Assembly (NCBI GenBank): GCA_963809485.1
Contig: CAWEJX010000001.1
Coordinates: 502,091-566,090 of the forward strand
Direction of reading: 5' to 3'
Length of the DNA stretch: 64,000 bases
DNA from: an uncultured Acidobacteriota bacterium
Lineage (GTDB): Bacteria > Acidobacteriota > UBA6911
In this document: piece after piece, positions 13,721 to 38,206 of the stretch
Position numbering within the stretch: position 1 is the first letter of the stretch
Layout of the letters: every line of letters starts with the position of its first letter
Position numbers and translations under genes: made by a program
Notes under the pieces: model-generated
What the model saw: only the letters and a program-made list of their open reading frames with translations
The model's database searches: none
Told to the model about the DNA's origin: nothing

Positions 13721-14893
13721 TTAAGGCGTATGGCCGGAGGCGTAAGTGCGGCGCAGGAAATCGGCATTTTTGCCATTGGCAGCGATTTCCTGGCAAATCG
13801 TCTTCCATTCCGATGCCGGTATGGTCAGGAACTTCTTAACAATCGATGGATCGAGTTGCGCCCCCGACATTTTTTCAATTTCCCGCCCGGCACCTTCAAT
13901 GCTTAGGGCAGCCCTGGATGGACGATTGGATGTGAGGTCTTCGAAAGCGTCTGCCACGGCAAAAATCCGTGCACCCATGTTGATCGCTTCTCCCTTCAAA
14001 CCACGGGGATACCCTGTTCCGTCATAGAGCTCATGATGATGCAGCACCAGTTGTGCGGCTCCCTTCAGGAACCCGATACTGCTCAGGATTCGGTAGCCGA
14101 CTTCGGGGTGCCTGTTCATCAGGCGACGCTCCCTTTCGGTCAGCGGCCCGGGCCGACGCAGCAACGAATCGGGTATGCCGATTTTCCCAATATCGTGCAG
14201 CAGTACGCCTTTTTCTATAATCCTGATTTCCGGTTCGCTTAGGCCCATTTGCAGGGCCAGGCGCGCCGTTAAAGCCGTCACACGCAGCGAATATCCATCC
14301 GGGTCGGCATCCCGGCTGTCCAGCGCCTTGCTCAGGGCGACAAGCGTTGAATGGTAGGTCTGTTCCAGCACTCCCAAGGCATCTCTGAGTTGGTGGGTGC
14401 GATGGGCGACCTGCTCCTCCAAAGTTCGCTGATAGAGCTGGTTCTCAAGCAGCAACCTGCGTTTCTCGAGCGCGCGGGAAATGCGTATGGACATTTCGTC
14501 CAGGCTGAACGGTTTGGTAATGTAGTCGTACGCACCCTCTTTCAGGGAACTGACGGCTACTTCAATATCCATGACGGATGTGAGCAGAACCACGGCGGTA
14601 TCGGGGCAAGTTCGCATCGCCTCCTCTAAGAGCGCGCTGCCGCCTTTCGCCGCCGTCAGAAGACCTGTCAATACCAGGTCAAATTTTTGGCCGGATAGAA
14701 GCGCAAGCGCCGCCTTTGTATCGGCGCAGCATTGGCATAGATACCCCTGGCTGATGAGCTTGCGGGCCAGGATATCCCGGACAATCCCATCCTCGTCCGC
14801 AATGAGTATTCGCACCTCGGACGCGGGAGCGCCTGCAGCGGTGCTCAGCTGCCGCCCGGAGACATTGCTCGAATCCGACATGGAAACAGACAT
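13721..14893 (-). CDS. Response regulator with receiver and HD-GYP domains (degenerate)
   Basis: Receiver domain (GAYDYITKPF) plus HDIGK and HHELYDGTGYP. Confidence 0.88.
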   Translation of the reverse strand: MSVSMSDSSNVSGRQLSTAAGAPASEVRILIADEDGIVRDILARKLISQGYLCQCCADTKAALALLSGQKFDLVLTGLLTAAKGGSALLEEAMRTCPDTAVVLLTSVMDIEVAVSSLKEGAYDYITKPFSLDEMSIRISRALEKRRLLLENQLYQRTLEEQVAHRTHQLRDALGVLEQTYHSTLVALSKALDSRDADPDGYSLRVTALTARLALQMGLSEPEIRIIEKGVLLHDIGKIGIPDSLLRRPGPLTERERRLMNRHPEVGYRILSSIGFLKGAAQLVLHHHELYDGTGYPRGLKGEAINMGARIFAVADAFEDLTSNRPSRAALSIEGAGREIEKMSGAQLDPSIVKKFLTIPASEWKTICQEIAANGKNADFLRRTYASGHTP

Positions 14894-15014
14894 GAAATGT
14901 ATCCGCCGCTGTGATCCGTTTCAGCACTGTGGATGAATTGGGACGTCCACGGTCCCAGCAATCCTTATCGACAGCAGGAGTCGATAACTTTCAGAAATTG
15001 TGACAGGCCTCACA

Positions 15015-15052
15015 TAGTGGTTAGTGGTTAGCTTTTAGGGATTAGGGATTAG
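15015..15052 (+). repeat. Left heptamer arm of the four-helix-bundle cassette
   Basis: TAGTGGT TAGTGGT TAGCTTT TAGGGAT TAGGGAT TAG. Confidence 0.92.
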
Positions 15053-15104
15053 AAAAAGTGGATCAAAGAGAAGGATGATCATTAGGATAGTATGGAGCCC
15101 CAAT

Positions 15105-15467
15105 ATGTCAGCGGCAAACTATAGCGACCTCATTGCATGGCAAAAGGCATTCAGGTTGGCATTGGCACTCTATAAGTCAAAGGCAGACTTTCCTACAGAG
15201 GAAAAATATGGGATTACGTCACAGATAAGAAGGGCTTGTATTTCGGTACCATCCAATATTGCCGAAGGGCATGGGCGCAGTTCAAAGGGCGATTTCTATC
15301 ATCATCTGTCCATCGCTCAAGGATCGCTGAAAGAGATTGAGACCCAACTTCTAATCGCCAATGCACTGGGCTATTGTGGTACAAAACAGACTTCTCTGCT
15401 CATGACGATGACGGCAGAAGTAGGCCGTCTGATCAGTGGCCTACGCAAATCACTAAAACCCCATTAA
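15105..15467 (+). CDS. Four helix bundle protein (23S rRNA-IVS-like / bAvd-like family)
   Basis: YSDLIAWQKA, FPTEEKYGITSQIRRACISVPSNIAEG, AQGSLKEIETQL; GGAG RBS before ATG 15105; visibly lower GC than its neighbours. Confidence 0.93.
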   Translation: MSAANYSDLIAWQKAFRLALALYKSKADFPTEEKYGITSQIRRACISVPSNIAEGHGRSSKGDFYHHLSIAQGSLKEIETQLLIANALGYCGTKQTSLLMTMTAEVGRLISGLRKSLKPH

Positions 15468-15492
15468 CCTATTCTCTCCCAATTCATCACTC

Positions 15493-15540
15493 CTAATCCC
15501 TAATCCCTAAACCGCTAACCACTAACCGCTAACCGCTAAC
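15493..15540 (-). repeat. Right heptamer arm of the four-helix-bundle cassette
   Basis: CTAATCC x2, CTAAACCG, CTAACCA, CTAACCG x2, CTAAC; contains the stop codon of the SPL-like gene. Confidence 0.92.
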
Positions 15541-16613
15541 AACTGGTTGAGATGCGCGGCATTGCGGGGGCGCTCGCCGAAACTCCGTTCCCAGACCGCT
15601 GCGCTTTCCATGCAGAGATAGACGAAAACTTCCGGCGCCTGCTCTCGAATCCAGGATCGCATCCGCCTGTACATCTCCTCCCGTATGGGCCGGAAGTACC
15701 GGAGCTTTCCATGATGGCCCGGAACGAACTCCCCGTAAGGGATCCTGGATTTCGGGAACCGCTTTCGAACAAGCTCCCGCAGGTGCGGGGTAAAGCGGAG
15801 CGCCCCCAGGCTCACCCAGGCGATTCTGCCCGGATCGACAGCTCGAAAGATATCTCTTACGGCTTCCCTGTAGCCCGTTTCCCATTCCTCATAAAAAATG
15901 ACAGGATCGAAATGGAATCCAACTTTGTAGCCCCATTTTTGGCACTGAACCGCCGCAGCCAGACGCGTGTCAAAAGACGGGGCCCCAAGCTCCTCCGTAG
16001 AGCAGATGTGCCTGGAATTCATCGACCATGAGACTACTGTGCGGCCGCGATGGTCCAGATCCTTCAGGTTCCCGATCTGGTCGGACTTGGTTTTAAGTTC
16101 GAGAACGGCATTGGAGTGTGCTGCGAAAAGCGGCACGATTCGCTGCGAATACCGGGTGATGGAGTCCAAAGCCAGCGAATCGGTGAGTTCCCCGGTCCCG
16201 ATTCTAAGGCTGCGCTCCGGCGAACGGTCGAGTGTCGTTCGCACCTCAGTCAGCAAATCCTCGATGTTGGTGCAAACAACCATTGCATTGTTATTCAGAT
16301 AGCACTGCAGGACGCAGTAGGTACACTCCATCGGGCAGTTCCATGCATAGCTCACGATCTTATAGTTGCAGCAGATCTCGGCACCGCTCCCCTGGCAGTT
16401 TTTTAGGAAATTCCCGGCGAATCGCATGAGAATCAGGGTATCTTTAGTATGCCTTTGCAGGTCAGCCGTGCCGTCCGGGTCGGCCGATCGGCTGTCGGCA
16501 TTTTTAATGGTGTGTGTCGGGATTCCCTGCAGCCGCTCCAGGATTTCGTGAGTGGCCCGATCCTGCCAGGATTGCTCCTGAACCAGAATTTGTTTGGGAA
16601 TATAGGGCATCAT
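15522..16613 (-). CDS. Spore photoproduct lyase-family radical SAM protein
   Basis: CPMECTYC motif, GTGELTDSL, LELKTKS, VGFHFDP, GKLRYF and YLCME motifs. Confidence 0.87.
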   Translation of the reverse strand: MMPYIPKQILVQEQSWQDRATHEILERLQGIPTHTIKNADSRSADPDGTADLQRHTKDTLILMRFAGNFLKNCQGSGAEICCNYKIVSYAWNCPMECTYCVLQCYLNNNAMVVCTNIEDLLTEVRTTLDRSPERSLRIGTGELTDSLALDSITRYSQRIVPLFAAHSNAVLELKTKSDQIGNLKDLDHRGRTVVSWSMNSRHICSTEELGAPSFDTRLAAAVQCQKWGYKVGFHFDPVIFYEEWETGYREAVRDIFRAVDPGRIAWVSLGALRFTPHLRELVRKRFPKSRIPYGEFVPGHHGKLRYFRPIREEMYRRMRSWIREQAPEVFVYLCMESAAVWERSFGERPRNAAHLNQLLAVSG

Positions 16614-27545: not shown

Positions 27546-27580
27546 CAGGATTTTGAGGGAAGGCATCATGCCTAATCCAT

Positions 27581-27974
27581 CAGTCAGGCGCCTCCGGCAA
27601 AGCCGGAGGCCTGAAGGATTGGAACCGCTCAAAGCGGTTGGAGGAGTTACGCCAATCTTGAACGCTGACTTACGCGGGCAAAAGCCGATGAGGTGCTTCC
27701 GATCCCCGCAGGGACCAGCGCTCCGCGCTGGACGGTTTTCTGCGGCGGCACTGTGGCAAACGCCCGGTTTCTCATATCCTCCATCTCCTTAGCGCACGGC
27801 GCTTGCCACAGTGCCACCGCAGAAAACCCAATCGGAAGCACCTCATCGGCTTTTGCTCGCCGACCCTCGCCGACCAGATCGGCGTTTGTCAGCGCTTTGG
27901 TCAGCGTATCTCAGCGTTTCAAAATATGGAGCCGTCAAACTCTATGAGTCCCCCGGCAGAGCCGAGGGTTTACC
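27581..27974. mobile_element. Non-autonomous IS200/IS605-type palindromic element (PATE/MITE-like), copy 1
   Basis: Terminal hairpins GCCTCCGGC-AAA-GCCGGAGGC and CCCCCGGC-AGA-GCCGAGGG-TTTACC; subterminal AACCGCT-CAA-AGCGGTT; no transposase; homologous copy at 45856-46081. Confidence 0.75.
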
Positions 27975-28027
27975 ACTAGAATCAGGAAGAGGATCACCGA
28001 ATTTTTTCCCAAGCCCGAATCTCGAGA

Positions 28028-31004: not shown

Positions 31005-31128
31005 TAGGGATTAGGGATTAGGGATTAGAAAATTCATGTTTAAGAAAAGCTCTCTTAAAAAGGTTAACAAGCGAAGTAAATGCGCCATTATGTTCTCCCG
31101 CAACGTCCTAATCACTAACCGCTAACCA
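31005..31128. repeat. Inverted heptamer pair between imuB and dnaE2
   Basis: TAGGGAT x3 plus TAG (31005-31028); CTAATCA CTAACCG CTAACCA (31108-31128); AT-rich spacer of about 80 nt. Confidence 0.88.
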
Positions 31129-32260
31129 CTGCAGAGTCGCCGTAGCGGCGGCGCAGGGCGTCGAGGGCGAACTCCAGTTTCAGGCGGCGTTCAGGCTTGG
31201 GATCCGCGAAAAGTTCCAGTTGAACCGAGCCGGAAGAGAGATCCGTCAGCTCCAGGTGCATGCTGCGCACTCGCGTGCGCCGCTTCAGAATGGAATCCAG
31301 GACCGGCAGGGCGCGCGCATAGAGGATCGCCGACGACTGCAGCGGCGGTGCAACTTTGAGGGTACGGCCGTCCTCCGCGTAATCGGCGTACCGGATGCGC
31401 AACCCTATCCTGCCCGCGCGTTGCTTGGTATCGCGCAATTGCCTGCCTGCGTGTTCGCAAAGATCCGACAGCTCTTTTTTCAGCAATTCATAGTCGTTGC
31501 TGTCTTCGGACAGCACTTTCCCCTTTTCCAGTGCCGGCACGGAGCGCTTCGGATGCACCGGTGTGCTGTCAATTCCGAGGGCATGCTGGTAGAGCATAAA
31601 TCCAAGACGGCCGAACGCCAGGGCCAGGTGCTCCTGCCTCATCGCCGCAATATCACGGATCAGACGAATGTTGAGATCTTCGAGCTGTCCCTCGATTTGA
31701 GGGCCGACGCCGGGCAGCAGACGCACCGGCAGGGGGGACAGGAAAGAAGGCTCGTTCCCACAGGGAACATCCTGCAAACCGGAAGGTTGAGTCACATCCG
31801 AGGCGATCTTGCTCACCATTTTGTTGGAAGCAACCCCGAGCGAAGTGTCCAGATGAAGCTGTTGCCGGATTTCTTTCTGGGCCCTCCATGCGGTATCCCG
31901 CGGCGGGCCGAATAGCCGGCCGGTCCCCGTAATGTCCAGGTATGCATGCCCATAGCCCGAAGGCTCGATGATGGGCGAATAGCTGTCCAGAACCTTGAAA
32001 ATCGCGCGCGAAGCCCGAAGATAAAGCTGCTCGTTCGGCGGCAGCACGGCGATATTCCTGCAATAACGTGTGGCCTTTGAGAGAGCCATTCCCGCACGAA
32101 TGCCCGCACCCCGCGCTTCCGAAGACAACGCTGTCACGATGGAACGGGCCGCGCCAAGCGGGGCCACCACCACCGGCCGGCTACGCAGCTCAGGGTGTAG
32201 GACCCGCTCCACGGCCACAGGAAAGTCCGTAACCGTCACATATATGATCTGCCGTTCCAT
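31115..32260 (-). CDS. imuB: Catalytically inactive Y-family polymerase, ImuB-like
   Basis: DinB-like sequence but TVTDFPVAVE and GYGHAYLD replace DMDAF and SIDEA; clamp motif QLELF; upstream of dnaE2. Confidence 0.8.
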   Translation of the reverse strand: MERQIIYVTVTDFPVAVERVLHPELRSRPVVVAPLGAARSIVTALSSEARGAGIRAGMALSKATRYCRNIAVLPPNEQLYLRASRAIFKVLDSYSPIIEPSGYGHAYLDITGTGRLFGPPRDTAWRAQKEIRQQLHLDTSLGVASNKMVSKIASDVTQPSGLQDVPCGNEPSFLSPLPVRLLPGVGPQIEGQLEDLNIRLIRDIAAMRQEHLALAFGRLGFMLYQHALGIDSTPVHPKRSVPALEKGKVLSEDSNDYELLKKELSDLCEHAGRQLRDTKQRAGRIGLRIRYADYAEDGRTLKVAPPLQSSAILYARALPVLDSILKRRTRVRSMHLELTDLSSGSVQLELFADPKPERRLKLEFALDALRRRYGDSAVVSG

Positions 32261-32268
32261 ATTCCAAT

Positions 32269-32349
32269 TTACGAATGACGAATTACGAATGACGAATTGA
32301 AAAACTGGGCTGAGGTTTCAATTCGTCATTCGTAATTCGTCATTCGTAA
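32269..32349. repeat. Perfect 34-bp inverted repeat built from TTACGAA/TGACGAA heptamers, 13-nt loop
   Basis: 32269-32302 is the exact reverse complement of 32316-32349. Confidence 0.95.
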
Positions 32350-33112
32350 TTCCTTTTAGTAGTTCCAACAACATGCGCGCGTTGACGACGGCCTGGCCCC
32401 GCCAGTGATTGCCCATGAAGATGAGGACTTTTTCGCTCTCCTGTTCCAGCCGGCGAATTTCCGGGACCACTGCCGCAAGCTCAGCCCTGCTGTAAAGGTA
32501 ATCATGTTGGGCAGACCCGTCGCCTTTAACCCACCTGGACCGGTTCCGCCCCTGGAAACGTACGTAGGCCAGACCCGCAGTCGCGCAAAAAAAAGTCCTT
32601 TCTTTCAGGCCCGTTCCGCCATCCACACAGGCAAGCGCGATGCGAGCGGCGTCCAGATGTCTGGCTGCCCTTGGCGAAAGCCAATTCGTGCAGCCGAACT
32701 CCGCAATTAGCGGAATGCCTTCGAGGGAATCCCTCATCAGGCACAATCGTTCGAAGTTGTCGCGCATAAAACCGAATTCGGGAGGAAACTGCGCCAGGAC
32801 CCCGGCCAATTGACCCGAATCCTTCAATGGCCACAGGGCCGCGCAAAACCGCCTGGCCAGCTCAGGGTTATCCGGGTGCTCCTCCGAGAGCCGGTAGGGA
32901 GCACGGAAAATGAACTGAACGCTTTCCCGGGTTTGCTCGATAATCTCTTGAATAGTAATGACTTCCGGAATCCTGTAGTAGGTCAGTCCAAGCTCGCAAC
33001 AGCCGAACTGACGGCCGTAATAGCCCAGCCAGAAAGCCGGATCAAGGCTTCTGGGATAAAACACCGGCGTCCACTCACGGTACTGGAATCCGCTTGTCCC
33101 TACGAGGATCAT
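32318..33112 (-). CDS. DUF72 (YecE-like) domain protein
   Basis: MILVGTSGFQYREW..FYP, LAQFPPEF, YVRFQGRN and DYLYS motifs; start set at 33112. Confidence 0.9.
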   Translation of the reverse strand: MILVGTSGFQYREWTPVFYPRSLDPAFWLGYYGRQFGCCELGLTYYRIPEVITIQEIIEQTRESVQFIFRAPYRLSEEHPDNPELARRFCAALWPLKDSGQLAGVLAQFPPEFGFMRDNFERLCLMRDSLEGIPLIAEFGCTNWLSPRAARHLDAARIALACVDGGTGLKERTFFCATAGLAYVRFQGRNRSRWVKGDGSAQHDYLYSRAELAAVVPEIRRLEQESEKVLIFMGNHWRGQAVVNARMLLELLKGITNDELRMTN

Positions 33113-38007: not shown

Positions 38008-38059
38008 TTCATTCCGATATTATTCCGGGATTTCCGATCCGTCAACGTAAACCCGGCTT

Positions 38060-38206
38060 TAGCGGTTAGGGATTAGGGATTAGGGATTAGGGATTAGGAT
38101 AATGCTGCATCGATTATAGTGGCTGCCATTCATTCAGGAGCTTGCCGTCAACCGTACCGTTCTAATCCCTAATCCCTTATCACTAATCACTTATCCCTAA
38201 TTGCTA
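38060..38206. repeat. Inverted heptamer pair, telomere-like (TAGGGAT)n ... (CTAATCC)n
   Basis: TAGCGGT plus TAGGGAT x4 (38060-38097); CTAATCC x2, CTTATCA, CTAATCA, CTTATCC, CTAATTG, CTA (38162-38206). Confidence 0.92.

Follow-up and report, generated by a model that had tools for sequence, protein, structure and literature searches.

A four-helix-bundle gene between heptamer-repeat arms: a cassette at a long-lived intergenic site, with cargo and inner repeat units that vary among close relatives

A stretch of 64,000 nucleotides from the genome of an uncultured Acidobacteriota bacterium (the window; the genome is G000 below) contains a small four-helix-bundle gene enclosed by inverted arrays of heptamer repeats. 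On balance, the reading we consider probable is that of a heptamer-armed cassette at a site that follows a stop codon and has persisted for long. Close relatives differ in its cargo and in its inner repeat units, and recombination between arms likely exchanges both. The encoded protein would be a non-catalytic helper, predicted to bind the repeats. The locus ties the family TIGR02436, which is to our knowledge very large and without an assigned function, to heptamer repeats, with population-level evidence of exchange. The excess of heptamer repeats in bacterial genomes has, as far as we know, been noted for long and not explained; the likely spread of the cassette via repeat-arm recombination, possibly during natural DNA uptake, would account for it.

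Table 1. Coordinates in the window of the cassette, its neighbours and gene-less stems. The names imuA-like, imuB-like and dnaE2-like denote gene resemblance; imuB-like and dnaE2-like were read from translations, not from a family scan.
Feature	Position	Strand	Remark
Response-regulator HD-GYP gene, host neighbour	13721..14893	-	family scan
Left arm	15015..15052	+	outer TGGTTAG units (word also in G006 here), odd junction unit, inner GGATTAG units (G000 word)
Weak match to bipartite promoter-like motif TT[CG]GCTCAA-N15-ATTAGAT, common to comEA and comM	15059..15087	+	putative function
GGAG ribosome-binding site	15094..15097	+	from sequence
Four-helix-bundle gene (TIGR02436/PF05635), 120 aa	15105..15467	+	sole intact copy among 3 in genome
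Right arm	15493..15539	+	overlaps final codons and TAG stop (15522-15524) of SPL-like gene
Spore-photoproduct-lyase-like (SPL-like) radical SAM gene, host neighbour	15522..16613	-	below family cut-off
Gene-less GATTKAC stem	8026..8239		
Gene-less stem with the word of the four-helix cassette, imuB-like/dnaE2-like junction	31005..31129		arms 31005-31028 and 31108-31129
Gene-less GAATKAC stem, imuA-imuB-like junction	32255..32352		
Gene-less GGGATTA stem	38059..38201		

The left arm consists, in order, of the units TAG TGGTTAG TGGTTAG CTTTTAG GGATTAG GGATTAG, and the reverse complement of the right arm reads CGGTTAG CGGTTAG TGGTTAG CGGTTTAG GGATTAG GGATTAG. The mirrored order of unit variants, odd middle unit included, can be read off the sequence just as the original prediction had described it. 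A stem of about 38 bp had been expected; both arms form one of 37 bp in RNAfold (z -6.7, equally stable shuffles 0/100), outside which the outermost unit of the right arm falls. Among cross-pairings in its own repeat family this arm pair ranks at 0.98. The GC content of the open reading frame is 0.466, against 0.568 and 0.559 for the neighbours, which together with the GGAG site bears out the proposed lower-GC gene of 120 residues with its own ribosome-binding site. The gene is antisense to its hosts, both neighbours being on the opposite strand. Repeats overwrite coding ends in the window: the arms at 32255-32352 and 15522-15540 encode C-terminal residues of the imuA-like and SPL-like proteins, respectively. 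Upstream of the HD-GYP gene, at 14964-14972 on the minus strand, lies GTCGATAAG, which we take to resemble a sigma-28 -10 box; similar boxes are present in relatives. The HD-GYP gene may be independent of read-through from the SPL gene.

The gene product scored 120 bits with TIGR02436 (cut-off 24) in a family scan, and 25.5 with the Avd model, below its cut-off of 80. Its predicted structure is all-helical, with four helices (pLDDT 92). The predicted monomer matches 2GSC (Xcc0516) with a TM of 0.86 and Avd with 0.74-0.79, and also matches 2RLD (BT_0352), so that the expected likeness in fold to S23p and Avd holds for the model. Solved relatives of the protein contain five chains. With a dN/dS of about 0.11 between G000 and the related genome G006, the gene is intact and under purifying selection. 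The protein had no match to a transposase family in the family scan. No reverse transcriptase partner was found in G000, where the only reverse transcriptase detected is broken and lies on another contig; neither a reverse transcriptase nor a template repeat is near the gene. The fragment, at C8:590061-590318, is group II intron-like.

The same site was compared in relatives. SPL loci numbered 25, of which 12 are comparable and were classed by eye on 330 nt. Gene and arm are present at three (G000, G006 and G001, the latter two loci stopping at contig ends), bare arms of a related word at two, a different stem at one, and six are armless. The original prediction was to be given up if other four-helix-bundle genes lacked such arms and the locus was invariant and vertically inherited; the locus is not invariant, relatives having the gene, bare arms or an armless site. 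A quick SPL tree with a weak backbone places the genomes with the gene and those with bare arms in different clades. The flanks of G000 and G006 align closely up to the arm, after which identity falls, and the four-helix gene is 65% identical as protein. The dS of this gene is 2.07, as against 0.41 for the SPL neighbour.

Both versions were also traced in sequencing runs. In run X3, an SPL-side contig (depth 14) overlaps cassette contigs of G000 type (5.5) and G006 type (8.16), which diverge within ~25 nt of the SPL stop. Run X1, with allele depths of 2.28 and 2.47 and a flank depth of 5.3, fits the same picture. These data, which are contigs from runs that are possibly not independent, place both cassette versions beside the same flank in one metagenome population. 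Two alleles at one site could also be an old balanced polymorphism. In run X2 the allele depths of ~2.6 and 4.96 (~7.6) do not sum to that of the flank (16-18). No joint across the cassette was detected in four contig sets, the other joints found having sides of at most 30 letters and lying on repeats. The junctions compared revealed neither a precise empty site nor a target duplication, and excision joints were likewise not seen. Of the proposed self-contained unit that inserts between genes, the build of gene plus arms stands as a general one and the insertion is not supported: what the comparisons document is cargo replaced and inverted at armed sites of long standing, not a cleanly inserting unit.

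The repeat words themselves differ between these genomes. On the SPL side, G006 has the outer GYGGTTA units as in G000 and lacks the inner GGGATTA units; the odd unit is therefore a junction. The same contrast of outer and inner units was observed at 31005 and at one C20 site. GGGATTAGAAAA occurs in only 2 of the 149 GGGATTAG genome-wide, namely in the four-helix cassette and at 31005, and the junction predicted to be common to these two sites is borne out. The 31005 stretch folds like its shuffles (z -0.01). The GGGATTA pattern has 33 matches in G000 and none in G006, G001, G018 and G020, whereas matches to the GYGGTTA pattern number 10 in G000 and 134 in G006. In this repeat family each genome's word matches the resident allele. 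GGATTAG is the innermost unit in 18/21 G000 arrays and the outermost in 4/21. From these positions, renewal of the arms appears to start at the loop, and the mirrored order is largely an outer-old, inner-new gradient across the whole repeat family. Mirror order as a general property was rejected: in elements that had been selected for pairing, pairing with the own arm exceeded cross-arm pairing in the GGGATTA family only (p 0.0014; four others not significant).

Armed sites outlast their contents elsewhere too. Armed genes were found in both orientations at 2/9 sites shared between genomes. An FmdB-like host gene lacks arms in G012, has a bare stem ahead of it in G015 and G018, is enclosed in G001 and G006, and is enclosed and inverted in G000. 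The imuB-dnaE2-like junction carries a stem in 6/6 genomes, with at least four words and unrelated loops, and similar stem turnover, including 8-mer, 9-mer and REP-like stems, was seen in a C8 operon. Whole stems are tandemly amplified together with flanking gene ends. The stem turnover, like the coupling of word and gene, rests on related, non-independent genomes. Tandem amplifications of whole or half stems are located at C19:41167-41912, C7:561339-562208, C1:274825-275238, C7:741027-741355 and C11:4273-4686; in the C19 unit, the final ~21 nt of the gene upstream are repeated together with its stop. At C20:557312-557638, a queD-like gene lies beside stems and has the opposite orientation in G012 and G015. 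Arm-bounded segmental duplications were considered and rejected, the C11/C7 case being a longer near-duplicate region that probably reflects strain heterogeneity or contamination.

In the mechanism we propose, the host would provide the chemistry, through recombination and template switching. The latter is known to make arms uniform and to turn spacers around (PMC8604942). Inverted arms would allow loops to be flipped and arms to copy each other, and direct arms would allow units to be amplified or deleted. New units would come in at the inner end together with new cargo. The protein is predicted to bind its own word and to favour exchange, and the gene-less stems would form a non-autonomous population. 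In this lineage only, expression may be timed to competence; incoming single-stranded DNA would then fold into the hairpin and supply donor cassettes. ComM is described as aiding heterologous integration in transformation (PMC12378983, accessible part).

The suggested timing comes from a bipartite motif, TT[CG]GC[AT]CAA-N15-[AG]TT, that emerged from a search of the upstream regions of 63 genes in relatives (log-likelihood 331, shuffled 84-97). A matrix of 16 relatives' cassettes, trained on genus loci chosen for strong sites, gave 22 genome matches in G000 (column-shuffled matrices 0, 7 and 0) and 19.5 bits at the four-helix gene. The motif is present upstream of comEA, a YifB/ComM-type ATPase, ssb, a minor-pilin gene, XPB and RecQ helicases and RAYT-like genes. 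Weaker sites are at recA, a pilin and radC, and none was found upstream of dprA, comEC, comF and lexA in G000. The names ssb, recA, radC, comF, lexA and that of the second pilin are presumed from characteristic motifs. Among relatives, the motif occurs at 21/29 comM loci (19/19 in the genus), 0/24 SPL loci and 9/580 shuffles.

For a non-circular test, the matrix was learnt solely from relatives' comEA and comM. Scores above the 99th percentile of G000 genes were then obtained for 13/35 four-helix loci of the genus, 9/31 of the other loci in the class and 1/184 outside. The G006 allele scored 17.2, and the four-helix gene of G000 was in the top 3.2% only. Outside the lineage the arm mostly extends nearly to the start codon, and matches to CRP-S, CRP and cin-box motifs numbered 0 upstream of the 184 outside loci. 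The motif showed no association with antisense orientation (8+/4- and 10+/11-). Judged by these matches, the link of motif and cassette is real for the lineage, weak for the G000 copy, and not universal. From the set of genes that carry it, we infer a competence promoter; a mark of a DNA-repair regulon is possible instead. As a by-product, this uncultured lineage gains a candidate for its competence promoter, the motif being upstream of comM in 19/19 genus genomes tested.

Several further observations concern the motif. The form TTTTT[GC]GCTCAAA-N14-ATTAGATA lies upstream of comEA, comM, ssb and the minor pilin (C6:75123, C1:229401, C1:39325, C16:134815, L345-L403), and another family has the variant TTCGCAAA...GTTATG. 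About six RAYT-like genes carry it (C8:348537, C19:107-1219, C1:77565, C6:229424, C20:1012027, C4:292253); the one scanned matched NF047646 below cut-off. Four ORFs (C20:1243400-1244302, C20:770750-771922, C6:392095-392637, C20:790613-791155) that have strong sites for the motif but match nothing in Pfam or NCBIfam are candidate new competence or repair genes. At C7:764990-765600 (L121), a GxxExxY gene lies in its own stem of ~9-10-nt repeats, and a similar gene-less stem is found upstream of dprA.

A bolder reading of the same data, which we put forward as tentative, is a transposase-free selfish element. An Avd-like pentamer, turned on along with competence in this lineage, would read its own word on incoming single-stranded DNA and bias recombination in favour of its cassette and word, at the expense of older ones at armed sites. 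If this is true, each allele would rewrite the heptamer dialect of its genome, and rRNA intervening sequences (IVS) and heptamer repeats would be parts of one system.

Period-7 arrays are frequent throughout G000: there are 231, as compared with 1-50 for periods 5, 6 and 8-11. At a looser threshold an inverted partner was found for 220 of 454 arrays (null rate 0.7%). The non-redundant inverted heptamer pairs number 104, none of them inside genes predicted by a simple gene finder. The commonest word, GAATKAC, is without a cognate gene in the assembly. Gene-less loops contained no gene remnants, and only the three gene-bearing loops exceeded controls. Among the arrays listed, none of period 7 lies between the rRNA motif matches C20:198878 and C20:203121. 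A dispersed repeat of ~400 nt, present dozens of times in both G000 and G006, is sometimes nested in heptamer loops (~27580-27985 in the window; loops C1:13828, C5:68706 and C8:491156). The outer edge of the stems lies no more than 20 nt from the stop upstream in 50/63 co-directional cases (expected 36.5), and where at least 60 nt of free space is available, stems abut the stop in 17/28 cases and the start in 3/28.

This placement would also suit an IVS acting at the mRNA level, which we consider unlikely. RNase III would cut the passenger gene from host transcripts, so that insertions are harmless or the operon mRNA is tuned, and gene-less stems would be processing or stability signals. An RNase III gene is present in G000, the 37-bp stem is in place, and outside the lineage the gene is sense to its upstream gene in 112 cases as against 58. 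In Coxiella, RNase III cleaves the stem of an IVS that has heptamer repeats (PMC4990558, available text). However, the four-helix gene of the window is antisense to both hosts, and G-U wobbles do not favour the transcribed strand (53 vs 57 and 211 vs 212). The lack of G-U bias on either strand favours action at the DNA level. If the motif is a promoter, the left arm would be missing from the gene's own mRNA. Cargo exchange and word replacement are not explained by RNase cutting.

The combination of gene and arms is general. Among the strongest 70 of ~128 matches in relatives, 56 of 66 scorable four-helix loci are armed, compared with 6/1316 control genes; the corresponding values are 59/78 for GTDB, 60/74 for metagenome and 26/32 for viral loci, with 0/150 in-locus controls. 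Nearly all armed loci have period 7, with a median arm length of 33 nt. In G000 itself, where a survey of the flanks of all four-helix paralogues had been advised, 3/3 TIGR02436 matches have paired heptamer arms, each with a different word. The viral loci are on contigs (L282-L321), and phages may be carriers of cassettes. Protein distance tracks arm word (Spearman 0.23, n=42 with one locus per site, 0/2000 permutations in a Mantel test), a result that co-descent alone could yield. At least ten matches of either of two repeat patterns were found in 22/32 genomes with the gene and 0/9 without it, all of these genomes being related to each other and incomplete. The reversed-pattern controls of these counts, and those of the word counts in G000 and its relatives, are not nulls, because they match other heptamer words or the same repeat.

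These frequencies bear on the view, which we regard as improbable, that the stems are a passive by-product. Slippage and template switching would build them at tolerant post-stop sites, and an ordinary accessory gene would ride along with no action on the repeats. The homogenised arms and inverted spacers of template switching, tandem duplications with microhomology ends, and the gathering of 8-mer, 9-mer and REP-like stems at the same junctions are consistent with such an origin. Against it, ~80% of four-helix genes are armed across phyla and the controls scarcely are. Each word keeps to one arm polarity (19:0, 15:0, 14:0, 13:0 and 8:1), the change of word is genome-wide and matches the resident allele, and the nine genomes without the gene have next to none of the repeat patterns. 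Retro-mobility, in which an Avd-like pentamer on the RNA hairpin of the cassette would bring in a reverse transcriptase of the host or of an intron, with the cDNA then recombining into armed sites, would accord with the fold match and with the binding of an RNA stem-loop by all five protomers of Avd (bioRxiv 2023.10.23.563531, accessible part), and is very unlikely given the sub-threshold Avd score, the broken sole reverse transcriptase and the absence of an RNA-strand signature.

The reading as an armed cassette exchanged by arm recombination was compared with known systems. IVP genes are also found in CPR rRNA insertions. Within rRNA, the combination of this protein family with a terminal stem and heptamers is known from the Coxiella S23p IVS (PMC4990558, available text). 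The cassette resembles it in protein family, lower GC and similar size. The IVS has terminal inverted repeats of 28 bp, compared with 37 bp here, and its 5' arm has tandem heptamers in variable number, as in the cassette (same source). Unlike the IVS, the cassette lies between protein-coding genes, antisense to its hosts, with its gene under purifying selection; ~100 gene-less stems exist alongside, and cargo is exchanged and inverted. The IVS-like character originally predicted is confined to the stem and the TIGR02436 gene in its loop, and an rRNA IVS of S23p type was rejected, the locus being outside rRNA, its ORF antisense to both hosts and its G-U pairs without strand bias.

The heptamers of Xanthomonas, Nostoc (PMC4692102) and Beggiatoaceae (PMC4679880) likewise form intergenic arrays and inverted pairs, 70 such pairs in Xcc (PMC4692102), and end beside start codons or overlap ORF ends. 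The available text of these two papers describes no cargo or exchange, and the main texts do not contain 'helix bundle' or 'S23'. The modelled protein shares the four-helix fold of Avd of diversity-generating retroelements (4DWL, 8UB7) and differs in having no reverse transcriptase or template repeat nearby and in its sub-threshold Avd score. Lineage-specific repeat dialects and a possible link to transformation recall DNA uptake sequences. These occur as inverted pairs behind genes. The cassettes differ from them in their tandem 7-mers, in several words per genome and in a predicted cytoplasmic partner protein encoded between the repeats.

In the literature covered, which excluded most subscription journals and supplements, armed four-helix cassettes outside rRNA or a link to competence were not found. 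The cargo exchange, the reading of mirror order as a time gradient, the flipping of loops and the lineage motif common to cassettes and competence genes are new. As in the RAYT-REPIN system, a rare gene lies between inverted repeats that belong to its own family, many extragenic gene-less inverted doublets are present, there are several families of gene and repeat per genome, and tandem clusters include flanking DNA (PMC3116915, accessible part). The RAYT-like genes of G000 moreover carry the same upstream motif as the cassettes. Unlike RAYT-REPIN, there is no HUH/Y1 transposase, the arms are runs of 7-mers rather than single palindromes, the loops are mutually unrelated, and the sites persist while their words turn over. 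By analogy, the cassette system would work most like RAYT/REPIN without a transposase.
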